From Squalus acanthias (taxonomy: Eukaryota): a stretch of DNA of 64,000 bases. A program made the translations under genes and the position numbers. The stretch spans positions 37,946,001 through 38,010,000 of the forward strand of contig CM059432.1 in assembly GCA_030390025.1 (NCBI GenBank), read 5' to 3'. Under the pieces are notes generated by a model, which worked only from the letters and a program-made list of their open reading frames with translations, was not told the DNA's origin and did not search any database. Positions 5,436-63,679 of this stretch are shown piece after piece (the first letter of the stretch is position 1; the number at the start of each line of letters is the position of its first letter).

Positions 5436-5984
5436 CTGAAAAAAATGAAAGATTAATTAGATATTTGTGTGTTACAGTAAGACCAATTACAGAATTTCAA
5501 ATCAAAATGTTTAAAGTGGTGCAGCTCTGGAAACAGATGTTCAAACTCTGACATCCCAGTGTGTGAGTTTCGTCAACTGAAGCAATGTCATCTACTGCCC
5601 CTAATTCAGCACAGAAATTAACCACTAGGTTTACGCAGTGCTGCATATCTGGCTTTCAGGTTCATTGTCCAATGGCCCTTGCTGTTAATTCTTACAGTAG
5701 ATGTGTCCTTTATCTAGAAATTATCAGTAGCACAATCCTTTTAGCATTGAGTATACAACACAATTATCAGCTTTCAGTGGCCCAACTATTTATATAGTGC
5801 CTTTAACATTGAAAATGTCCCAAGGCGCTTCACAGAAACATAAGATGACATAAATTGTTATAGAGCAAAAGAAGTATATTAGGACAGGTGACTAAAAGCT
5901 TGGTCAAGGAGGCAAGTTTTAAGGAAGGTCTTAAAGGTGCAGAGAGAAGTGGAGTGGCTGAGGGAGGGAATTAGGCAGAGTCAG

Positions 5985-7240
5985 TGTTGTCTTATGAAAG
6001 GGAAATCATGTTTGACAAATCTAGTGTTTTTTGAGGGTGTAACGGACAGGGTAGATAAGGGGAACCAGTGGATGTAGTATATTTGGATTTTCAGAAGGCA
6101 TTCGAAAAAGTGCCACACAAGGGGCTGTTACACAAGATTAGGGCTCATGAGATTAGGGGTAATACATTAGCATGGATTGAGGATTGGTGAACGGACAGAA
6201 TGGAGGAATAAACTGGTCATTTTTGGGTTGGTAGTGGTAGGTTGTAACTAGTGGAGTGCCGCAAGGATCAGTGCTTGGGTCTCTGCTATTTACAATCTAT
6301 ATCAATGACTTAGAGGAGGGGACAGAGTGTAATATATCCAAGTTTGCTAACAATACAAAGCTAGGTGAGAATAAGCTGCGAGGTGGATACAAAGAGGCTG
6401 CAATGGGATATAGCCCAATTAAGTGATTGGGCAAGAAGGTGGCAGATAGAGTATAACGTGAGTAAAGGTGAAATTATCCACTTTGGTAGGAAGAATAGAA
6501 ATAATTTTTATAAAGGTGAGAGACTATTAAATGCTGGTATTCAGACGGATTTGCGTGTTCTTGTACACAAATCACAGAAAGTTAACATGCAAGCAATTAG
6601 GAAGACAAATGGAATGAAGGTTAGCCTTTATTGCAAGGGGGTTTGAGTATAAGAGTAATAACATCTTGCTGCAATTATATAGGGCTTTGGTGAGACCACA
6701 CCTGGAGTACAGTGTACAGTTGTGGTCTTCTTACCCAAGGAAGGATATACCTGCATTAGAGGCTGTGCAACGAAGGTTCACTAGATTGATTCCTGGGATG
6801 AGGGCTGTCCTACAAGGAGAGATTGAGTAGAATGGGCCTATGTTCTCTGGAGTTTAGAAGAATGAGAGGTGATCTCATTGAAACATAAGATTCTGAGGGG
6901 GATTGACAGGGTAGACGCTGAGAGGTTGTTTCCCCTGGCTGAAGTGTCTAGAACTAGGGGGCATAGTCTCAGGATAAGGGGTAGGCCATTTAGGACTGAG
7001 AAGAGGAGAAATTTCTTCACTCAGAGGGTTGTAAATCTTTGGAATTCTCTCCAGAGGGCTGTGGACGCTCAGTCGTTGAATATATTCAAGACGGAGTTCG
7101 ATAGATTTTTAGACATTAAGGGAATCAAGGGATATGGGGATAGGGTGGGAAAGCGAAGTTGAGGTAGAAGATCAGCCATGATCTTATTGAATGGCGGAGC
7201 AAGCTCGAGGGGCCATATGGCCTATTCCTATTTCTTATGT
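5985..7240 (+). mobile_element. CR1 LINE, 5'-truncated and degraded
   Basis: RT remnants ([17 protein letters not shown]) and C-terminal RTRGHSLRIRGRPFRTEKRRNFFTQRVVNLWNSL; CR1 3' tail. Confidence 0.88.
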
Positions 7241-46834: not shown

Positions 46835-49276
46835 CACCCTTTGAGTGTACTCTTTTGAGCAACCCATAAACAAATAGACTGTAACTAAACTTAAAACATT
46901 AAATTAAACTTAACAATTTAAATTGAAATTTGGTTGCTGGGGGTGATGATGCACTTCAGTCCCCGCGGTGCCCACCGGTCGCGGAAGACCTCGAGCGTGC
47001 CGGCGGACACCGTGCGCTCCATCTCCAGGGCCACCCGGGCACGAATGTGGCCGTGGAAGAGAGGCAGGCAGTCGGGCCGAACAACCCCCTCGACCGCCCG
47101 CTGCCTGGACCAGTTGATGCCCACTTTGGCCAGGCCCAAGACCAGTCCCACGAGGAAGTCCCCCGATCTGCCCGCTCCCCTCCGCACCGGGTGACCAAAG
47201 ATCAGGAGCGTGGGACTGAAGTGCAGCCAAAAATTGAGGAGCAGCCCCTTCAAATAAGGGAAGAGGGTCTGCAACCTCTCACACTCCTTATAAACATGAA
47301 ACACGGACTCCTTCAGGCAGCAGAAAAGGCAGGCGGCCTGGGAGTCCGTGAACTGACTTAAAACTTTATTGCACGAGACTGCCCCGTGTAACACCCTCCA
47401 GGCCAAGTCCCCAATAGATAAAGGGAGGACTCCCGTGTAGAGAGCACCCTTTGAGTGTACTCTTTTTATTGGGCACAAAACCAAATCACTGTAAATCAAT
47501 AAAACTTCAAAGGAAACTTAAAAAATTAAATAAAAATTTGGTAGCCCGGGGTGACGATGCACTCCAGTCTCCGCGGCGCCCGCCGGTCGCGGAAAAACTC
47601 GAGCGTGCCGGCGGACACCGCGTGCTCCATCTCCAGGGCCACCCGGGCGCGAACATGGCCGCGGAAGAGAGGCAGGTAATCGGGCCGAACGACCCCCTCG
47701 ACCGCCCGCTGCCTGGACCAATTAATGGCCTTCTTGGCCAGGCCCAGGAGCAGTCCTACGAGGAGGTCCTCCGACCTGCCCGCTCCCCTCCGCACCGGGT
47801 GACCGTAGATCAGGAGCGTGGGGCTGAAGTGCAACCAGAAATTGAGGAGCAGCCCCTTCAAATAATGAAAGAGGGGCTGCAACCTCTCACACTCAATATA
47901 TATATGAAAAACGGACTCCTCCAGGCCGCAAAAATGGCAAGCAGCCTGGGAGTCCGTGAACCTATTTAAAACCCTATTGCTCTGTGCAACACCCTCCAGG
48001 CCAAGTCCCCAATAGAATAAGGGAAGACTCCCGCGTAGAGAGCACCCTTTGAGTGTACTCTTTTGTTTGGGTACCAAATCAAAAAACTGTAAATCAATAA
48101 AACAATAAATGAAACTTAATAAATCAAATTAAAATTTGGTAGTCCGGGGTGACGATGCACTCCAGTCCCCGCGGCGCCCACCGGTTGCGGAAAAACTCAA
48201 GCGTGCCGGCGGACACCGCGTGCTCCATCTCCATGGCCACCCGGGCGCGAACATGGCCGCGGAAGAGAGGCAGGCAATTGGGCCGAACGACCCCCTCGAC
48301 CGCCCGCTGCCTGGACCAATTAATGGCTTTCTTAGCCAGGCCCAGGAGCAGTCCTACGAGGAGGTCCTCCGACCCGCCCGCTCCCCTCCGCACCGGGTGA
48401 CCGTAGATCAGGAGCGTGGGGCTGAAGTGCAACCAGAAATTGAGGAGCAGCCCCTTCAAATAATGAAAGAGGGGCTGCAACCTCTCACACTCTGTATAAA
48501 TGTGAAACACGGATTCCTCCAGGCCGCAGAAATGACAAGCAGCCTGGGAGTCCGTGAACCTATTTAACATCCTATTGCACGGGACTGCTCCGTGCAACAC
48601 CCTCCAGGCCAAGTCCCCAATAGAATAAGGGAAGACTCCCGCGTAGAGAGCACCCTTTGAGTGTACTCTTTTGGATTGGACAGAAACCAAATTAGCTGTA
48701 AATCAAATTAAAATTTCAAATGAGACTTAATAAATCAAATTAAAATTTGGTTGTCCGGGGTGACGATGCACTCCAGTCCCCGCGGCGCCCACCGGTCGCG
48801 GAAAAACTCAAGCTTGCCGGCGGACACCGCGTGCTCCATCTCCAGGGCCACCCGGGCGCGAACATGGCCGCGGAAGAGAGGCAGGCAATTGGGCCGAACG
48901 ACCCCCTCGACCGCCCGCTGCCTGGACCAATTAATGGCCTTCTTGGCCAGGCCCAGGAGCAGTCCTACGAGGAGGTCCTCCGACCTGCCCGCTCCCCTCC
49001 GCACCGGGTGACCGTAGATCAGGAGCGTGGGGCTGAAGTGCAACCAGAAATTGAGGAGCAGCCCCTTCAAATCATGAAAGAGGGGCTGCAACCTCTCACA
49101 CTCAATATATATATGAAAAACGGACTCCTCCAGGCCGCAAAAATGGCAAGCAGCCTGGGAGTCCGTAAACCTATTTAAAACCCTATTGCATGGGACTGCT
49201 CCGTGCAACACCCTCCAGGCCAAGTCCCCAATAGAACAAGGGAAGACTCCCGCGTAGAGAGCACCCTTTGAGTGTA
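46835..49276 (-). repeat. Array of four ~600-bp Tx1-clade 3' ends (zf-RVT domain + 3' UTR) separated by five identical 15-bp repeats
   Basis: CACCCTTTGAGTGTA at 46835, 47445, 48043, 48651 and 49262; units encode (LAWRVLHGA)...CxxC...ESVFH...EC. Confidence 0.92.
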
Positions 49277-51424
49277 ACGTCAAAGAGCTTGGGCTTTAAG
49301 ACGTGAATTAGGACGCCAATCATTTTTTTTGAGCAGTGAGCATGAGTTTTGCATGCAGTCTAAAGCATTAGTGCCTGGCGCTAATTATCCAACTTTTCTA
49401 CTGATACCGCCCATTCCTTGGCTATAATGAATTTCTAGCCCTCTTTGGTTGGAATTGAGAAACAATAAAGGAGATATTACGCTACTTGGTGTATTGTACA
49501 GGCCACCAAATAGTGGGAAGGAATTAGAGGAGCAGATTTGCAAAGAAATTACTGAGAGGTGCAAGAACTGTAGTGATAATGGGAGACTTTAACTACCGCA
49601 GTATTGAATGGGGCAGTGATTGTGTTAAGGGCAGAGAAGGAGAGGAATTTCTGAAGTATGTTCAGGAGAATTTTTTGATCAGTATGTTTCCTGCCCAACG
49701 AGGAAGGAGGCATTGCTGGATCTATTCCTGGGGAATGAAGTGGATCAAGTGGAGAATGTCACAGTTGGAGAGCATTTCGGGAATAGTGATCATAGTATCA
49801 TAAGATTTAGATTAGTTATGGAGAAGGACAAGGAGCAATCTAGAATAACAATACTTAACTGGAGGAGGGCTAATTTCAGCGATATGAGGAGGGATCTGGC
49901 ACGGGTAAATTGGAGTCAAAGACTGGTAGACAAAAATGTAATGGAGCAATGGGCGGCCTTTAAAGAGAGATGGTTCGGGTACAGTCTACGTACATTCCTA
50001 CAAGGGGGAAATAGGAGGGCAACCAAAACCAGAGCTCCCTGGATGACGAAGGAGTTGGAGAGTAGGTGAAGCAGAAAAAGGGGCATATGACAGATGTCAG
50101 TTCGATAATACAAGGGAGAATCAGGCTGAATACAAAAAGTACGGAGGAGAAGTTAAAAAGGAAATAAGAGGGGCAAAGAGACAGTACGAGAACAGATTGG
50201 CAGCTAACAAAATGGAATCCAAAGGTCTTCTATGGGCATATTAACAGTAAAAGGGTTGTCAGAGGAGCGGTGGGGCCGATTAGGGACCAAAATGGAGAAC
50301 TATTGGTTCAGGCAGGAGGCATGGCTGAGGTACTAAATGAGTACTTTGCATCGGTGTTTACCAAGGAAGAGGACTTTGCCAACGCTATGGTAAACGAGAA
50401 GGTTGCTGGATGAGATAAAAATAGATAAAGAGGAAGTACTGTAAAGGTTGGCGGTAATTAAAGTGGATAAGTCACCCGATCTGGATTTGATCCATCCTAG
50501 GTTACTGAGGGAAGGGTAGAAATTGCAGAGGTGCTGGCCACAATCTTCCAATCCTCCTTAGATACAGGGGTGGTGCCAAAGGACTGGAGCATTGCAAATG
50601 TTACACCCTTGTTCAAAAAAGGGGAGAAGGAAAAACTTGGCAATTACAGGCCAGTCAGTTGTCGGTGGTGGGGAAACTTTTAGAAACAATAATCCGGGAG
50701 AAAATTAACAGCTAATTGGACAAGCATGGACTAATAAAGGAGAGCCACCACATATTTGTTAAGGGCACATCATGTTTGATTAATTTGATTGAGTTTTTTG
50801 ATGAGGGACAGAGAGGGTGGATGAGGGCAGTGCAGTTGATATTGCGTATATGGACTTCAAAAGGCGTTTGATAAAGTACCACATACGAGGCTTGTTAGCA
50901 AAATTGAAGCCCATGGGATAAAGGGGGCAGTAGCAGCATGGATACAAAATTGGCTAAGGGATAGAAAACAGAGAGTTGTGGTGAATGGCTGTTTTTCAGA
51001 CAGAATGGACGTATACAGTGGAGTTCCCCAAGGTTCAGTACTAGGACCATGGCTGTTTTTGATATACATTAATGACTTGGACTTGGGTGTACAGGGCACA
51101 ATTTCAAAATTTGCAGATGACACGAAACTTGTAAGTGTAGTGAACAGTGAGGAAGATAGTAATAGACTTCAAGAAGACATAGACAAGCTGATGGAATGGG
51201 CAGACACATGGCAGATGAAATTCAATGGAGAAAAGTGTGAGGTGATACATTTTGGCAGGAAGAATGAGGAGAGACCATACACACTAAATGGTACAATTTT
51301 AAAGGGGGTGCAAGAACAGAGAGACCTGATGGTGCTTGTACACAAGTCTTTGAAGGTGGCAGGACAGGTTAACGAAGCAGTTAATAAAGCATATGGGATC
51401 CTGGGCTTCATGAATATAGGCTTT

Positions 51425-53479: not shown

Positions 53480-56400
53480 GGGAGAACTACAACTTCGACA
53501 ACAACTGGAAGAAAATAACATCTACTTGGAAGGAGAGAGACCACAACCAACTAAAGATCAACATAAGGTGGGTGTTGGTGCACTTTCTCTTCAAGGCTAT
53601 TACCTGTAGGTGGGGGGAGGGAAGAAGATAAAGGTTGAAAGATTGTGAGGGGAATGTATTTGCTCTTTCAAAATCAACTAGGCCGCACACACTTTTAAAC
53701 ACTGCCCCCGCCCCCACCTCCCTCCCTCTGCCCCCACCTCCCTCCCTCTGCCCCCACCTCCCTCCCTCTGCCCCCACCTCCCTCCCTCCACCCCCGCCCC
53801 CCCAAATTGCCTGGCCTGGGACAGCTGGAGCTGCCTGGGTGAAGTTTTTCTTTCTATTCCCATTAACAAGACTTGGTGGTGGACTGTGCCTGGGTGTTTC
53901 CAGCTGTCCCAGGTGAAGACACCTTCTCTCTTTCCCCCCCCCCCCCCCCCACCAGAAGAACATAATCGTAATAGACTTTGTGATTCCATTGGAAAGTGCA
54001 CCCCTGCAAGCAAGCACCCACCACTGAGTGGTGACCCTGCCCCTGCTCTCTCTCTCTCCCTCTCTGAGAAGCATCTCATTTTCTTAAATTGATTGATTAT
54101 TGAGCTTGGGGAGAAGGCCCCTCTCCCATCAGCATATAAAAGGGAGAGTTGTGTTTTCATTTGAGAACACCCTCTGCTCAAGGAGCATAAAACCTAAAGC
54201 CATAATTATGAACATCGGGCCTAAGACTTGGGGTGAGTGTAGCTCTTAAAAATAGAACAACCCTGCTATGGCGACTCCATCTTCACCGGTGGCGGGGCCA
54301 GCGAGGACATACGCAGGTGTGGCAACCACAGATGCTCCTGCTACCCCGTCACCTTTTAAACTAATTACCAAAAGCAAGAGCTACACTCACCCCAACATGA
54401 CAATCGAGGCTTGCGTGAAAGCCATGGCTGGGGTTGTCGGCCCCTCAGCCATCGTTGCAGCCTTGAAAATGTACGGGAAGGCGGTGTTCTTCCTGGGGTC
54501 GGAGCGTGTGGTGTCCCTGGCCCTTAATAAGGGGCTCACGGTGGGCGGGACCTTCCTGCCGGTGGACCCCCTTGAGGCTACCGCGCAGCGAATCGTACTC
54601 TCCAACGTCCCGCCCTTTGTCCCCGTTGAGCAGCTCCTTCCCCACCTACGTCAACTGGGGGAGGTGAGGTCAGGGTTGACGCCGATCCTGCTCAGCTTCA
54701 GGGAGGCCAGCCTCCATCACGTCTTCTCCTTTTTATTCAGCTGGCACGGGAGGAGGACACGGAGGGTGCATTTTTGGTGTACCGTGAGGGGACAGCCTAC
54801 TGCTTCTTCTGGATGTCAGACGGTGTACGGTGTCACGCCTGTAAGGAGGTGGGGCACGTACGTAAAAACTACCCCGTCACCAAGGCCGCTAAACCACCTA
54901 AAGCTGCCGAGGCTGGTGCTGCCAGCGCACCCCCCCCCCCCCCCCCCCCCCCGCCGTTCCTATCCGCGTGTCGGAACCAGTAGATGCGCGGGCGATGTTG
55001 GAGGCCAATACTATCGCGGCCTCCAGCGGGGGGGGGGAGGTAGAGCGCCTGAGCGGAAGGAAGGCGTGGAGAAAAAAGAAACCTCGAGAGGCGGGGTCCC
55101 TTGGACAACCCAAACAGCCCCATAACCGCGCTCATCCCTGGCCCCGTGGCGACCGTGAGCATGAGGGATCCTGTGCCCGAGCCCGTGACTGCAGCCACTT
55201 CTGCGGAGAATTTACAACCCGCCCGGGAAAGATAAAAAGAAGGAGGGGGCGGAGGCGGAGGCCGACATGAAGGTTTCCTTACCTCTGCATCCCTCCAGAA
55301 TAAAAAGGAGGCGCCGCTCCTTGGAAGCAGAGGAGGACCTGGAGGAGGGAGGTCCCTCCGTGCGGGAGGAGTCGGCGCCCGGCGCGGGTCCCCCCCCCCC
55401 CCCCCCCCCCCCCCCACCACCGTCACCAACATGCGCCGTCAGCAGGAGTCACCGGTCCCTCGGGAGGGTGAGACTGTTGCGTCTGTCCGGCCTGTGCCTC
55501 ACGGGGATGGGGAAGAAGCCCTGCCCGTGGGGTTTGCGGAACCGCCCACCATTGCTATCTCACCACAACCGCTACTCGTCGCCGGATCGGGCGTCCTGGG
55601 GGCTGAGACGGGCAAGGCCGATGAGGCTGAGCTCACCCAGTCACACCCCGACATCGCCCAGGAACTGCTCGACCTGGTGGAGGATTGTAATAAAAACAGC
55701 CCGCCCGCTGGGCTGGTGGCGGGGAGGGGGAGCGCCCCCTAACTCCACCTCTGAGGCTGGGGCCGGGTGTGTTGGAGGAACTGGGTATAGTTTTCTCCCC
55801 GGTTTCTCCATTCCGCCCGGTGCCTGGGGTGGAGGGGGACCCCTAACTGCTGCCACCTCCTGGCCAGGCACCCCCGGAGGACTCCTGCCGTCGATCCTGG
55901 GGCTGGGATTGTGACGGAGATAGGGCTGGCTGGTGTGGCCGAGCCATTCGCTCTACCCTGTGTGGTGGAAGGATCGGGCGCTGGCGATGACCTCCTGGAG
56001 GAGGAAGGGGGCTCGGTGGAGGGCACTGGGGATGATTTGGACTCCATCGCCAGCGAGGCCCCCACCGAGCCGCCCCTCATTCCCGTTGCGGAACTCCAGG
56101 AATTTCTGCTGGTATGCCTGGGTCGTCGAGACAAAATCCAGCGAGCCCTCGACAGGAGGTCAGAGCTGGTGCTGCTCATCAGGTCTGTCCACGCCGCTGT
56201 TAAGACCCTGGGCGCAGACAAGGATGCGCGCAACCGTGAGCTATGTCGGCTCAAGACGTTCCTCACTGAGCTGCTGAGGGAGTGGAGGATAACGCGTGAC
56301 TCCGCTCCCTCCCCACAGTAGATTAAGTAGAGGTTGCACTATGCTCTTGTCATGCAACCTCAACATCAACGGCATCAGAGAGGCGCACCGCAGATTTAAT

Positions 56401-58087
56401 AACTTCTCGATCCTTAAAGAAAGGAAGTATGTGGTGTGCTTCCTGCAGGAAACCCACACCGTTGCGGGAGATGAGGCTAAGTGACTCCTGGAATGGCGAG
56501 GAGGGGTCTGCTTGAGCCACCTCGCTACCACTTCTTGCGACGTGGCTATCTTGCTGGCCCCACATTTTCAGCCAGAGATCTTGGGTGTCAAGGAGCCTGT
56601 TCACCTGGGGGAACGTGCCGCTCCACCTAGTAAACGTACACGCTCCCCAGACCGGTGCGCAGCAAGTGCACTTCTTTGAAGAAGTGTCCGCTCTTTTAGG
56701 CTCCAACGACGCCAGCGAGTGCATTATCCTCGGGGGGGGGGGGGATTTCAACTGCACCCTCGAGGCGAGGGACCGTTCTGGTGCCCCGCACAGCATGGTG
56801 ACATTGGGGAAGTTGAGGGACCTGGTCGGGTCCGTCGACTTGGTGGACATCTGCCGAAATCTCCAGCCCGACTCCAGCGCCTTCACTCACGTGAGGTCTG
56901 GAGCAGGAAAGTCCAGAAACGCCCGCCTTTACATTTCCCGGGCGTACGTCTCCCACGTTTGGGCGACTTCCATGCGGCCGGTGCCATGCTCGGATCACCA
57001 CTGGTGCAGGCGGAGCTCGCTCCACCCCGCGCGGGGGTGGGGGGGTCTGCATACTGGCATTTTAACAACCTGCTGCTGAACGATGAGCAGTTCCACGATT
57101 CGTTCTGTTGATTCTGGACTGACTGGAGAAGGAAGCAGGGGGGCTTCCCGGCCTTGAGGCTATGGTGGGACGTGAGCTCTGTTCTCTCTAGATCCACAGT
57201 TTTGTGGAGGATGCTCACAGAGTTTTGTGGGAGGACCTGCCGAAGGGCAGCCCAGAGGGCGCCGAACAGCTTGATGCTCCACTCAGCCTGGCGGAGCCTT
57301 CGGCCAGCTCTCGATGGGCAAGTTCCCGGGGCTGGACGGGCTGACAGTGGAGTTTCATATAGCGTTCTGGGACGTCCTGGGGGGGCGACTACACACAGGT
57401 CCTGGGGGAAAGTCTGGCGACTGGAAGACGCCGCTCTCTTGTCACAGGGCAGTCATCGTCCTGCTGCCCAAGAGGGGCGATCTCCGCCTACTTAAGAACT
57501 GGTGCTTGGTCTCCCTCCTCGGCACGGACTGCAAGATCTTTGCCAGGACAATGTCTGCTCGCCTTGGCACCGTGCTGGCCCACATGATCTACCCCGACCA
57601 GTCCAACACGGTCCTGGACCGGACCATCCATGACAACATCCAACTGGTCCGGGATCTGGTCCACCACTCCTAGAGGGCTAGCCTGTCTGTCGCTTTCCTT
57701 TCCCTGGATCAGGCGAAGGCGTTCGACAAGGTGGATCACGAGTACCTTTTCGGGACTCTGCGCGCCTTTGGATTCTGGATGCATTTTGTCGCCTGGAGTG
57801 TCTGATTAAAGTTAACGGGTCTTTGATGGCGCCGTTTGCTTCGGGAGAGGGGTGCGTCAGGGATGCCCCATGTCTGGCCAGTTATATGCCATCTGCATGG
57901 AACCTTTCCTGTGTCTCTTGCGGAAGAGGTGACGGGACTGGCTCTGCAAGGGCTGGGGGTGGAGGTCGTCCTCTCAGCTTATGCCAATGAGGTGCTCCTC
58001 ATGGTCACGGATCTCATTGACTTGCGGAGGATGCGCGAGTGCCAGCAGGTCTACTCTGACACGTCCTCTGAGGATCAACTGGGATAA
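53480..58087 (+). mobile_element. Tx1-clade non-LTR retrotransposon, degraded and 3'-truncated; 5' boundary approximate
   Basis: ORF1 from 54268 (KMYGKAVFFL, IVLSNVPPF, CHACKEVGH); ORF2 from ~56340 (LNING, FLQETH, GDFNC, SDH, DQAKAFDKVDH, GVRQGCP); many frameshifts. Confidence 0.9.
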
Positions 58088-58089
58088 AT

Positions 58090-58433
58090 GTCTTGTTGCA
58101 GTTGTACAGGGCCTTGGTGAGACCACACCTTGAGTATTGTGTGCAGCTTTGGTCACCTTATCTGAGGAAGGATGTTCTTGCCATGGAGAGAGTGCAGTGA
58201 AGATTCACCAGACTGATACCTGGGATGGCAGGAATGACGTATGAGGAGGGATTGGGTCGATTAGGCTTATATTCGTTAGAGTTTAGAAGAATGAGAGGGG
58301 ATCTCATTGAAACTTATAAAATTCTAACAGGACTAGACAGACTAGATGCAGGAAGGATGTTCCCGATGGCGGGGGAGTCCAGAACCAGGGGTCACAGTCT
58401 AAGGATAAGGGTAAGCCATTTAGGACTGAGATG
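58090..58433 (+). mobile_element. CR1 internal fragment
   Basis: GMTYEEGLGRLGLYSLEFRRMRGDLIETYK...RTRGHSLRI. Confidence 0.85.
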
Positions 58434-59153
58434 GTTTTAGGGCACCCTTCCTCCTGAGCCAAAGCCACCGGAATCGTGGGCGGAGACTTGCGTGGGCGCG
58501 TGATGAGTTCAGTGGCGTTTACCGGGATCAGGGAGAATGGAGCTCCGCACCCCCGAGTGCTGACGTCCCATCTCACCCCTTTCCCGGCATCCTGCCACTG
58601 TTGTAGGAAAAATATGGATATACCCTTGGGGCAAACGTACTTCGATCCCCACATACAAACATATATTCCCTCATCCGGCTCCCACCATTTGTCCCAACAG
58701 ACTCTCAATTGTCCGTTAGTCCCCGTAATTGTCCGATGGGTATTGTTACCCAATCGTTCCCACTCGACCGAGGAATTTCTCAGTCTTGCTTAATTTCCGT
58801 AACCACCACCATCGGCTCAATGGGACGTTCCCATTGCACACCAAACAAATCCTTTTGCCGACGGTGACGCTGATTCTGGGTGCAACGATCCTCACCCTGG
58901 GACACAGTAAAGAAGTCTCTTGGTACGCAAACCCGGATGCGCTGGAGTATTCCGTCGAATTCGTTCCCAGCCATCCCGGCCACCTTCCCTTGTGGAAATA
59001 AGTGGCGGTTTCCTCAGCCTTTCGCTCCCCGGTCCCATCCGTCGCGATGGGGGCCGTGTCCCCGGAGCAACCGAACACAATGACATCCTTGGTGAGGCCC
59101 CGATAGGCCAATCCACATCCGATCGTTGCGAGCACCACCAGAATCCTTTCCAT
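58434..59153 (-). pseudogene. env: env 5' fragment (signal peptide + Ig-like domain), frameshifted
   Basis: MERILVVLATIGCGLA...CLVC...WWW...DEGIYVC...EEGCPKT, closely similar to the first env. Confidence 0.88.
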
Positions 59154-59429
59154 ATCTCCTGGTTCCTGTGATCAGATAAAATGATGTAGCCAGCCTCCCA
59201 AGAGTCTCTGGCTTTTGTGAAGGGTGAGCGGGTCCCTTGACCTCGTCTCCCGTACAAGACATGTATACTGGATAGATCTTAACTGTTCCTATCACTAACT
59301 CCCATCATTTTACCATTCACTTACAAAATTAAACTACATTCTTAACCGGGTAATTAAAACACTATATAAACCTAAACTTATCCTCCTAAAATAACTGTAC
59401 AGCGCCGCCTGTTCCCAGGGCGGCCTAGC

Positions 59430-62400
59430 TAAATCCTGAACAAGCTGCCACGAGCTCTTCCCCGTTGCGGGGGACACTGACCCTTGTCTTTGATCCGCCG
59501 CAGCCTGTCTCTGCTGAGCTGGGACTGGGACTTCCCTGGGCTGCCTTGAACTTACCCCTGGGGGTGTACGAGGGATCTGACCACAACTTCCTGGGCTGGG
59601 GTGTCTGACTCGACCTGCGGAGGGCCACCTTGGGCAAGATCTCCAGGACTGACGGACCGGGACTTCCGCCGTCACGGCCTGTGGTCCCACCACAGCCGCC
59701 GGCTCTGTCTCCCCTGGCTCCGCCCCCCTGGGCTCGGGATCTGCGGTTTCCGACTCCACCCTACTTGTTTCTCCAGTAAGTGGAACTCCACTCGCAATCC
59801 CTACCTCCCCTATGCTTGGGTCGAGGGCGGAACCTCCGTCCTCCGACCCCACCACCTCTCCGACCGGGTCACTAACTTGGTTGAGCCCTCCGAGCTCTTT
59901 CTCATCTGAATCCCAAGAAAAAGAAAAGATCCTACACTTTTCCAGAATGTCCTCTCCCCTCACGCAGGCTGCTTTACCGGCCTGTGTGCCCTGCGGTTCT
60001 ACCCGGGGCTGAGAGTCCCCACTCGCAGGTTTGGCCCCTGTGCACCCGGTTTATACAGCTTGCACTGGTTAATGTGGAACCATTTTGTGCGCCGGGGTAC
60101 CTTTACGGCATACACCATGGGACTCGCCTTATCTACAATACTGTAGGGTCCCATATATAGCGGCTCCAAACTCCCTACTCTGGCATAGTTCCTAACCATG
60201 ACCTGATTTCCGACTTCCCACTCCTGCTTCTTACGGGGTTCCAGCAACAGGCGATTGCCCTGATGCTGTCTTCCCATGTTCCCAGCCGCCTGCTCGTAAA
60301 CCTGCTTCAGGCGTTCCAAGAGGGTCTGGACAAACTTGTCCTGTTTCACCTCTTGGAGCTGACCTCAGTGAGCACCGGGGCTAGTACATGCGTGGGGGTT
60401 CGCATGATCCTCCCAGTCATCACCTCGTACGGGGAATACCCCGTACTCTTCGACTGGCTGGCCCGGATTCCCATGAGGACTAGAGGCAGGACCTCCGCCC
60501 ATTTTTGGGGCGAGTTCATAGTCTCTTTCCTCAGTTTTTCCTTGAGGGTCCGGTTCATGCGTTCAACAATCCCTGATGACTGGGGATTGTTAGCCACTTC
60601 CCTTCAATGCCCAAAAGCATGAGGGTGTTCTGCATCACCTGGCCGGTGAAATGACTCCCTTGGTCTGACTCCACGAAACGGGGAAGTCCCCACCGCGAGA
60701 ACACTTCCCGGACCAAGATCTTGGCAGTACCCAGCGCCGTAGCTGTTCTACAGGGAAAGGCTTCTACCCACTTGGAAAACACATCCACCAGGACGAGGCA
60801 GTATTTGTAGCCTCCCTGGGTGGTGGGCAGGGGCCCTATGTAATCGATTTGTATCGACTGCCATGGTCCCTCCACCCTCCTGATGTGCCCCATGTGCACT
60901 TTCCTTTTCTGGGGGTCTGGGTTGTTTGCAGCGCACACAAGACAGCTTGCACAGAACTCGCGGACCTGATCCCTGAGTCCCGGCCACCATCCCGCTTGCT
61001 CTACCCGTTGCCAGGTAACCTCAGGCCCGGGGTGCCCTGCCCCTGGCCCTTCATGAGCCAGCTGGAGGATTCCCTCCTGTGCTGCTGTGGCACAACCCAC
61101 TGTTCCTCGTGGAACAGCATGCCTTCTTTAACGGAGAGGGTTGCCGTACTGTACGGGACCTCTACCTGCTTGCCCTCAGTAATCGTTCTGAGAACTGCTT
61201 TTAGGGCGGGATCCTGGCTCTGGACGGTCTTAAGGTCTAGTGGCAGTGCTACCCTGGTGTTCCCGGGATTCCCTTCCCTGCCTTGGATCGCTGCCACGGG
61301 TCCATAGGGGTCCCAGAAAATGCCGTTACGGGCACCCTCCCTGGCTAGCGCATCCGCCTGCTGGTTGCCCTCCCCGCGGGTTCTGTGGAGGAGTGAGCCT
61401 TCACCTTGTGGATGAAAATCTCCCCTTCCTCCCCCACTGCTGCTAGGATCTTTTCCAGCAAGGGCTTCACCGTTAAAGGTCGCCCGTCCGCGGAGGTGTA
61501 GCCACGGCGGGACCAAATGGCCAGGTATTCCGTACACGAATTGCACGTAAACATACTGTCCGAACAAATCGTGTATGGGGTTGGCAAGATCTCTGGGTGG
61601 GTAACTGCGTACGCCACCGCAGACAGCTCAGCCTGCTGCGCGCTCATCGTGCTGGGGAGTTTAATTGCCAAGACAAGGTCTGCCGCAGGGTCATAAACTC
61701 CACACCCTGTGAGTCGTTCGCCAGCGGACACTGTGCTGGAACCATCGACATAAATCTCGCGGCCCGTGGGATGTATCCCGGCCCGCAAACCTATGTTGAC
61801 CTCCCACACCCCTTCAACCTAACACTGGTGGGCTGTTCCGGGGTATACCAGGTTGGCCGCGAGCTTGGGCTCGCAAAGACCTTTAACTCTGAGATCCATC
61901 TGGGAAAGGAGAAGGGTCCAGCACGCAATGTGGGTGCTGCTTACGGTCCCATCCTTAATCCTCCCATCCAGAAGCATCTTGGTTGGCGTGTGATGGGTGA
62001 GGAGAGTGATGGGAGAGAGCCCTGTGAAGATCGCTGATCTTTTCACAGCCCAATGCGTGGCTAAAAGATGCCTTTCGCAGTTGGAAAACTCCTTTCCACA
62101 TCCGTTAACACCCTGGATGAATAAACAACCGGCCTCAGCCTGCCGTGACGCTCTTGGAGCAGCACGGCGCTCAAGCTATCTCTGCTGGCGGCTACCTCCA
62201 GGAAAAACTCCTTCCCCCCAACTATGGCCCCTAAAGCTGACGCGGTCTGCAGATCCCTTTTTAACTTCTCGAATGCTGCCTGACAACCCTCGTCCCAAGA
62301 CCACTCCACTCCCTTATGGAGGAGTCGGAGCAGTGGAGCTGCTGTGGCCGCATAGTCTTCGATGAAGTCTCTGCAGTACCCGGTCAGTCCCAGAAAGGAC

Positions 62401-63679
62401 CTCACACCCGTTATGGTGTTGGGAATCAGTAACTCCTGCACTGACTCCCTCCTAGCCTTATCTATGGCTCTTTCCCCAGCGCGAATGGTCAACCCCAGGA
62501 ATTTTACTTCCTGCTGACCGATCCGTGCTTTCTTAGGGTTCACTTTAAAACCCTTTCTCGCTAGCAGCTCCAATAACTCGGCCAGCAGTGGTCCATGCTC
62601 CTCCCTTGAATCTGTGAACGGGAGCAAATCATCCACGTACTGCACTATCTGATTGGGCTGACTAAACTCCTTTAAACTTCCTGCCATACACTGATGGAAA
62701 ATACTGGGGCCGTTGTGGAAACCCTGTGGCAAACAGTTCCATGTGTACTGTTGTCCTTTGAAAGTAAAGGCAAACTTGTACTGGTCCTCTCGCCGCAGCG
62801 GGATGGACCAAAAACCGTTCGAGATATCCAGCACCGTGAACGTGGTCGCGGACGCTGGGATACCCCCTATTAGGTCAGCAACTGCTGCTACTGTGGGCGC
62901 GCAGGCGGGGATGTTACTGTTAAGGACTCTGTAGTTCACCGTGGCCCTCCACGAATTATCCGGCTTCCTTACCGGCCATAATGGGGAGTTCACGTGTGTG
63001 GCTATCGGCCTCAACATGCCCTGCTGCACCAATGAGGACATTGCTGTCTCCATGTCGGGTTCTGCTTCTTTGGGGAAGTTATACTGCTTTTGGAGCCGGG
63101 TCATGGGGTCCCCGTCTACGCTGACCTCAAACCCGGTAACCCTTCCACAATCGTGCTTGTGGGTTGCAAACGCGTGCATATTATCTGACACGTACGTTTG
63201 CATGTCTGTTGGGACATCCGCGACCATAAGCCCAAGGTCGTAACCTCCGGATGGCTTCATGGTACACAGGGCCCCTTTTCCTTCTTTCCCTGGGATTACA
63301 ACTACCTTGCCTTTCCCACCCTTGGCTCCCCAGAGACAGTGATTCCTAAGGTCCACGAGGATCCCGTGTTCCGCTAGGAGATCCGATCCGAGGATACCTT
63401 TGCCACCCCCCTCTTGCCATTTCATCAGGATGCACTTCCATGTGGTGTGGAGTGCTCCTAAATGAATGGAGAGCGGAATGGAGAATGCGCCAGCCTGCTC
63501 TTTTCCTGTGAACCCTGCTAATGTGAATGGGACCTTGATAGACAGTGGTGAGTCAAAGGGGCTATCTGTATGAATCACGGTGCATGAAGCTCCCGTGTCC
63601 AACAAGTAACTACCCTTCTGCTTCTCTACCTCCATCTCCAGCTGAGCGGACACAGGTAGACGGGCTGCGCGGGCTTTAG
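59430..63679 (-). pseudogene. pol: Retroviral pol with several frameshifts
   Basis: YLLDTGAS; LDISNGFW; LPQGF; YVDD; degenerate RNase H FFLEVAAS; second RNase H IYVDGSS/SAQQAEL/ICSDS/KVKAHS; HHCC; IDYIGPLP; SDQGSHF; VERMNRTLK; GPY. Confidence 0.92.

Follow-up and report, generated by a model that had tools for sequence, protein, structure and literature searches.

Four equally truncated copies of a Tx1 retrotransposon are stacked at one 15-bp site inside a Harbinger DNA transposon of Squalus acanthias, and their common 5′ start was probably inherited from the copy that already occupied the site. The array is likely to have been built by serial target-primed retrotransposition with resident-primed joining of the 5′ end. 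It lies in a window of 64,000 nucleotides, which is the whole stretch of DNA that was analysed (assembly GCA_030390025.1, contig CM059432.1, positions 37,946,001 to 38,010,000 of the forward strand). The array is a real feature, the locus consists of transposon debris without function, and the likeness to a CRISPR repeat-spacer array is one of layout only. In positions of the window, the locus is organised as follows.

44740 to 45518, plus strand: broken Harbinger transposase gene (DDE_Tnp_4, E=1.8e-15 for 45201-45518)
45736 to 46834, minus strand: Harbinger segment downstream of the target, including a Myb/SANT-like gene (ORF 46175-46771; PF13873, E=4.7e-6)
46835 to 46849, minus strand: 15-bp target copy 1, the 3′-most target-site duplication (TSD) in element orientation, running on into Harbinger; exact match, as at empty sites
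46850 to 47444, minus strand: unit u1, 595 nt, Tx1 ORF2 C-terminus and 3′ UTR; old subfamily and probable founder, by divergence and separate clade
47445 to 47459, minus strand: 15-bp target copy 2, exact match
47460 to 48042, minus strand: unit u2, 583 nt, with a 10-bp deletion near its 5′ end; departs from the u1 type at most 17 nt after its start, by alignment and tree
48043 to 48057, minus strand: 15-bp target copy 3, exact match
48058 to 48650, minus strand: unit u3, 593 nt; identical to u2 over its first ~59 nt, 3′ UTR of a type of its own
48651 to 48665, minus strand: 15-bp target copy 4, exact match
48666 to 49261, minus strand: unit u4, 596 nt, the 5′-most unit; last 90 nt as in a copy on a different contig (L100 unit 3); zf-RVT
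49262 to 49276, minus strand: 15-bp target copy 5, the 5′-most TSD; preceded by T, as at empty sites
49277 to 49441, minus strand: Harbinger terminal ~165 bp, upstream of the target, from the alignment of empty-site loci

Exact matching bears out the five identical 15-mers of the earlier note, spaced 610, 598, 608 and 611 bp apart, and with up to two mismatches allowed no further match was found within the window (0.12 expected by chance). The note had also given one start nucleotide and one end for every unit, and the four-unit alignment agrees: all start with CTCTCTAC, at reference position ~6688, and end in AAAAGAG. They encode the end of Tx1 ORF2 plus the 3′ UTR, and align at 86–94% to the 3′ 590 nt of the full-length copy L096. 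The unit protein matches zf-RVT with E=1.5e-5 and 26 bits, just below the curated Pfam cut-off of 27.5. An open zf-RVT frame had been claimed for each unit. The deletion in u2 is indeed present (alignment columns 63–72), but it shifts the frame, so that u2 is open only downstream of it. As had been noticed, the 3′ UTRs are clearly different, array mates sharing about 72–83% identity there (73–83% over the last 90 nt), and the leftmost unit, u1, is the most diverged. It is the 3′-most in element orientation and is 84–85% identical to u2–u4, versus 93–95% among the latter. Its distance from a young full-length copy is 12.6%, compared to 2.6–3.8% for u2–u4.

The array site is located ~165 bp inside the end of the host element. 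Hallmarks of PIF/Harbinger transposons are terminal inverted repeats and a 3-bp TWA target duplication. The host combines a DDE_Tnp_4 transposase with a Myb/SANT protein, and both flanks of the array are contiguous Harbinger, which supports the host assignment made earlier; a profile search of ORF 44740-45363, in the transposase region, gave no match. The 15-mer occurs in 1,417 exact copies in the 3.7-Gb assembly, versus 11 for the reversed control. Among the first 30 of these 1,417 loci listed, 27 are uninterrupted, empty Harbinger sites and three adjoin Tx1 sequence; the predicted empty site thus exists, and most of the sampled copies carry zero units. The empty-site loci align without a break across the array and end near 49441 (49262-49441/49447), the single sharp terminus that they have in common. 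Contigs from four public runs yielded repeat-derived fragments only and no piece spanning the array locus, and a sigma-70 promoter scan, a bacterial-type model that is inapplicable to a vertebrate, was empty.

Tx1 elements possess two ORFs, with a CCHC knuckle in ORF1 and an APE endonuclease, a reverse transcriptase (RT) and a C-terminal zinc-binding region in ORF2. In the full-length copy L096, matches to Exo_endo_phos, RVT_1, zf-RVT (below cut-off) and zf-CCHC were obtained, with a zinc knuckle in ORF1 and APE and RT in ORF2, and the young copy L111 has an intact ORF2 of 1,299 aa. The best full-length named match of the family ORF2 is the Xenopus Tx1 149-kDa protein (50% identity over 100% of the length), and protein neighbours from shark and ray reach 69–74%. 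Judged by these matches, the units belong to a non-LTR retrotransposon family of the Tx1 clade, as the earlier note had recognised.

A search around the 15-mer, as the note had suggested, identified 81 places in the genome where a Tx1 3′ end is joined exactly to this target. After arrays had been merged and three duplicated loci, about five read-through products and one 7-nt insert dropped, ~60 Harbinger-site loci remained, 14 of which carry more than one unit. Of the 3′ ends collected, a sample biased by locus retrieval, 99 of 134 are followed by TACAC. Exact Harbinger junctions make up 9 of the 100 matches listed for 3′ junctions of one UTR type, while among 18 further junctions of that type, 3 lie at variants of the Harbinger site and the other 15 at unrelated TACAC sites. 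Compared to ~1.6 million TTACAC sites, a rough figure extrapolated from 27 in the window, Harbinger sites are enriched about a hundredfold. The Harbinger site is a strong hot spot of a family with genome-wide TACAC use; a strictly Harbinger-specific family, like Tx1-9_AMi, was ruled out by these counts. The suggested retro-parasite of a DNA transposon therefore survives as a strong preference for Harbinger, but not as a dedicated parasite. Founder TSDs measure 11–16 bp (34 of 44 at 14–16), in line with the proposal that the 15-mer is a regenerated TSD. In an automated TSD table, used solely for the base before the TSD as long and nested copies gave spurious rows, that base is a T at the upstream TSD in 57 of 60 cases, and the element's own G precedes internal TSDs.

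Units of equal length separated by identical spacers could be expected if a single insertion had simply been duplicated in tandem and had then decayed neutrally. The spacers, however, show no decay whereas the units differ by 5–16%, and the units are not monophyletic. In a tree of 62 copies covering the unit length (a sample of loci, UTRs removed and shorter copies left out), the four require three changes and form one clade in 0% of 200 bootstrap trees. Over the last 90 nt, their identity to dispersed copies is 0.89, 0.92, 0.90 and 1.00, versus 0.73–0.83 to array mates; the UTR of u4 matches a copy on another contig at 100% and its mates at 74–82%. Because the units do not group together and each 3′ UTR is nearer to dispersed copies than to its mates, they represent separate insertions. 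The repeated independent insertions of the earlier note are thereby upheld, and simple duplication, ruled out by tree and UTR comparison, retains a negligible probability. The u2 and u4 units cluster with one dispersed copy (99/90 support) and differ at 7 of 400 body nucleotides. Part of one of them may therefore be an intra-array copy or exchange, and u2, u3 and u4 could have arrived in more than one order.

The fixed 5′ end had been attributed to either a non-autonomous Tx1 derivative of defined length, ~600 nt, or joining guided by microhomology between target and element. The single start nucleotide in all four units would fit both, as would the AGGG found near the junction in target and element alike. 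Against this, all four genome matches to the target joined to CTCTCTAC (one mismatch allowed) fall in this array. Of 30 sampled loci with the 17-mer of the unit start, 28 extend at least somewhat upstream into element sequence and none follows the Harbinger target. Target and element have only one nucleotide (G) in common at the junction. Furthermore, starts at the Harbinger site, 45 when taken per locus, are scattered over reference positions 5551–7147, with 3 of 990 start pairs between loci identical and 10 within 2 nt, and other arrays have periods of their own, from 252 to 3,070 nt. A junction unique to the array, together with single insertions that start anywhere, excludes both the derivative, for which dispersed loci lack a common 5′ end, and the microhomology hot spot; unless such copies are missing from the assembly, the chance left to either is minute.

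Within arrays, starts are shared. Truncated neighbours at Harbinger sites have exactly the same start in 13 of 14 pairs: three in the window, two in L103, and one each in L067, L069, L084, L102, L125, L129, L168 and L169. The last two were retrieved later as a test, chosen for closely spaced junctions alone, and both proved to be same-start. In every same-start pair the 3′ UTRs differ, with identities of 75–91% (72–83% in the window). The bodies are 86–96% identical, L168 and L169 differ throughout, and none of the 13 pairs is near-identical. Periods are locus-specific, ranging from 252 to 797 nt in Harbinger-site truncated arrays and from 252 to 3,070 nt over arrays at all targets, and shared starts are also found in arrays at non-Harbinger targets (L100, three times; L105; L108). 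In the fourteenth pair, L164, the upstream unit opens with the resident's first 25 nt, after which it continues, across a 3-nt microhomology, in a distant part of the element. Similarly, the first unit of L107, which starts elsewhere, has the resident's first bases and jumps after 4 nt. These two exceptions indicate that the top-strand primer would reach into the resident. Where one partner of a neighbour pair is full-length, starts are not shared (three cases: L095/L096, L104 and the L110 family).

Chimeric units point in the same direction. The upstream unit of L125 has 10 rare alleles in common with its resident in the first 287 nt and none after, with dense differences from position 328, near which the donor switches. 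Pooled over 15 pairs, neighbours differ at 31 of 746 sites in the first 50 nt (4.2%) versus 379 of 5334 beyond 100 nt (7.1%), which gives a Fisher p=0.002 with sites taken as independent and position-dependent conservation uncontrolled. Long TSDs, formed from downstream DNA, were observed at founder insertions as well: 140 bp in L072, ending in a 10-nt match; 165–178 bp in L096, L104, L127, L161 and L163; and ~850 bp in L164, where a 348-nt unit (a 99% copy) and ~500 nt of the next are followed by a young donor. From the chimeric upstream units and the target duplications of 140 to 850 bp it would follow that a newcomer inserts into the upstream TSD and joins its cDNA to the 5′ end of the resident. 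As founder TSDs are clustered at 14–16 bp, a second nick fixed there would not by itself reach the resident. In the window array, the resident-derived tract of u2 from u1 measures at most 17 nt and holds no shared rare allele, and u2 and u3 are identical over ~59 nt at the 5′ end. Since the tract is this short, the case for the present array rests on the family-wide pattern.

The ordered insertion record that the note had envisaged is roughly present. In 12 of 14 arrays, or in 10 of 12 (p=0.019) without two incompletely fetched ones, divergence is highest in the 3′-most unit, with divergence from a young copy serving as the measure of subfamily age and small margins in L101–L103. This statistical polarity suggests that new copies are added mainly at the upstream TSD and that 3′-most units are usually the oldest, although, to judge by the L110 family, some copies may have entered a 3′ TSD.

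Serial insertion with 5′ joining to the resident could proceed as follows. Firstly, the Tx1 family with the AAAAGAG 3′ end would nick T^TACAC, with the Harbinger site as a hot site; the junctions are observed. Secondly, the first insertion, u1, would be an ordinary, randomly 5′-truncated copy with a 14–15-bp TSD, a pattern that is seen genome-wide. Thirdly, later copies would go mainly into the upstream TSD, given that it alone retains the preceding T. There, the DNA beyond the TSD would be the 5′ end of the resident, with homology to the incoming cDNA. The top strand, cut or unwound within the resident, would anneal to the cDNA through the action of ORF2p or host repair, and second-strand synthesis would begin in register. 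The new unit would then consist of a TSD, a resident-derived 5′ tract of <20 to >300 nt and a 3′ part from the donor, products of which are seen at other loci. As the newcomer copies the start of the resident, independent insertions would be of equal length; the outcome would be a fixed, locus-specific period with varied 3′ UTRs and growth mostly at the 5′ side.

Exact duplication and 3′-end replacement both occur in the family, which makes a combination of the two a serious rival: one insertion would be duplicated in tandem between TSDs, and the units then overwritten, either by 3′-end replacement (target-primed reverse transcription at the 3′ junction, after which the cDNA would anneal further upstream) or through ectopic gene conversion with dispersed copies as donors. 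Plain duplication is exemplified by three identical units in L101 and by (AB)n in L107 at 99.7–99.9%. In L100, unit 3 (L100:2944-3927) has an old-subfamily body with the 3′ ~150 nt identical to u4, by all appearances a 3′-end replacement by a younger donor. The close bodies of u2 and u4 fit such a history too, and chimeras with shared 5′ parts are likewise predicted by it. However, with none of the 13 Harbinger same-start pairs near-identical, every duplicate would need to have been overwritten. No polarity is predicted, while 12 of 14 arrays display it, and no explanation is offered for L164 and L107, where the upstream unit has no more of the resident than its first bases, or for the long TSDs that run into Harbinger DNA. 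Duplication with overwriting is thus considered unlikely, and serial insertion with inherited starts is preferred.

At L158, L150, L120, L135 and L146, a Tx1 3′ end is followed by the Harbinger 15-mer at non-Harbinger sites, with a second short unit in L158 and L150. By their structure these are 3′ read-through transductions, which would imply source copies in a Harbinger site whose RNA carried the target sequence. The two products with a short following unit lend some support to a whole array inserted in one go from a read-through or template-jumping concatemer. This is nevertheless very improbable for the window array, as both flanks are contiguous Harbinger, the units come from subfamilies of unequal age and a source with the array junction is absent elsewhere in the assembly.

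Other insertions of the family were encountered along the way. L060 contains one copy at a TACAC site inside the apparent 5′ region of its own family, and at L106 two copies lie within a simple tandem repeat that contains TACAC. Multi-kb tandem amplifications that include Tx1–Harbinger junctions are present at L110, L136–L139 (C17, 41.29–41.37 Mb) and L113 (C27), with a period of 7,668 bp and of ~5.6 and 13.7 kb. A young sister subfamily (L097–L099, L111, L112, L114 and L101) inserts before AACACC in a repeat that we take to be Penelope-like. It forms near-identical full-length 7.17-kb arrays with ~70-bp target duplications, as well as truncated same-start arrays of 2,289 and ~3,075 nt. All full-length copies examined keep a 20-nt inverted repeat around the ORF1 start codon, with 128–151 nt between the arms (window 54228–54247 and 54376–54395; L096, L097, L104, L111, L127, L160, L161 and L163). 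TACACTCA lies in the downstream arm, which resembles the junction of the element's 3′ end with the target; the repeat could possibly fold into an RNA hairpin. The window further harbours an older, decayed near-full-length Tx1 copy at 53550–58091 (plus strand; 70–83% to L096), cut at 58091 by CR1-like sequence, and, judged by eye, LTR-retroelement pol-like sequence at ~58400–62500 (minus strand).

At the Harbinger site, the long TSD of full-length copies (L096:287-461, L104, L127, L161 and L163) is made up of 165–178 bp of Harbinger sequence from downstream, and the join falls at a purine-rich repeat. The duplicated region is the Harbinger DNA before the Myb gene start, and full-length heads at other sites (L031 and L032) retain a short Harbinger-like leader piece. 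Promoter borrowing from Harbinger by full-length copies is possible. A broader reading can be put forward only tentatively, and we would lean slightly against it: the family might routinely finish integration by homology-directed joining to DNA beyond the nick, with TSDs of 15 to ~850 bp. At occupied sites the breakpoint of the resident would be copied, leaving a 5′-polar record of donor subfamilies. In full-length copies, the 165–178 bp that precede the Myb start in Harbinger would be duplicated in front of the new element, so that targeting would both borrow and regenerate a host promoter. The available text of a study of L1 sites interprets 1–10-kb duplications as large TSDs that arise via break-induced replication (bioRxiv 10.1101/2024.12.14.628481), which would be an alternative route to the long TSDs described here.

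How LINEs join their 5′ end and prime the second strand is an open question, and these arrays constitute a natural repeated experiment in which one and the same nick is made either next to homologous DNA or not. Where homology lies beside the nick, the outcome is almost fixed, so that the priming step becomes testable, and this bears on precise 5′ joining in retroelement-based gene insertion. The arrays weaken a common inference, by which equal truncation in tandem LINE copies reflects duplication. They also provide a route to mosaic subfamilies, and a locally ordered series for subfamily dating. The literature searched contained no description of this Tx1 family in sharks or other cartilaginous fish, and no report of inherited truncation points, within a reach that ended short of subscription papers, Repbase and the supplements of PMC4494074. 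That Tx1 elements target Harbinger and that insertions stack at TSDs is already published; the inherited truncation point is a well-supported twist that appears to be unreported.

Among known systems, Tx1-9_AMi of crocodilians is a Tx1-clade LINE with a preferred insertion ~300 bp from the Harbinger 5′ end, and the same source, in its available text, interprets tandem SINEU-3 copies that sandwich a TSD as sequential insertion (Kojima, 2015, PMC4494074). The dogfish family resembles Tx1-9_AMi in its position near a Harbinger end, although at ~165 instead of ~300 bp. Compared by description and not by sequence, it differs in also taking TACAC sites outside Harbinger, and stacked LINEs of equal truncation with an inherited breakpoint are not described in the available text on Tx1-9_AMi (PMC4494074). 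The type element of the clade, Xenopus Tx1L, inserts in Tx1D, a piggyBac-type DNA transposon (PMC4494074, available text). Both families target a DNA transposon, and the ORF2 identity of 50% over 100% of the length relates them, but the target is of piggyBac type in Xenopus, while the window family uses Harbinger and generic TACAC sites.

The stacking itself has precedents. In the accessible part of their preprint, McGurk and Barbash explain TE dimers by double insertion, where the TSD regenerates the target and permits stacking, and distinct 5′ truncations in 6 of 10 jockey dimers are taken as evidence of independent insertion (bioRxiv 10.1101/158386). Independence is thus marked by distinct truncations in those dimers, whereas the truncations in Tx1 arrays are identical. 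For L1, pairing of cDNA with homology near the target likewise leads to chimeras and duplicated sequence, but it is sporadic there, while it would be usual beside a truncated Tx1 resident and would repeat to build arrays. Gilbert et al. reportedly described chimeric L1 copies with duplicated sequence in 2005. Annealing of L1 cDNA to nearby homologous DNA, in an SDSA-like manner, is attributed to that work in the available text of a later preprint (Gilbert et al., 2005, as cited in bioRxiv 10.1101/2024.08.27.596794). Lastly, R1 arrays in Drosophila 28S genes are formed by a site-specific APE-type LINE, with a 14-bp TSD between copies and new ones going into the TSD next to the resident's 5′ end, and flexible top-strand cleavage and microhomology priming are described for them (Stage and Eickbush, 2009, PMC2718515, available text). 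The polarity of Tx1 (12 of 14 arrays) fits this polar addition at the resident's 5′ TSD. R1, however, belongs to another clade and has another target, and the available text describes neither a takeover of the resident's truncation point nor a TSD that extends into the resident (PMC2718515).
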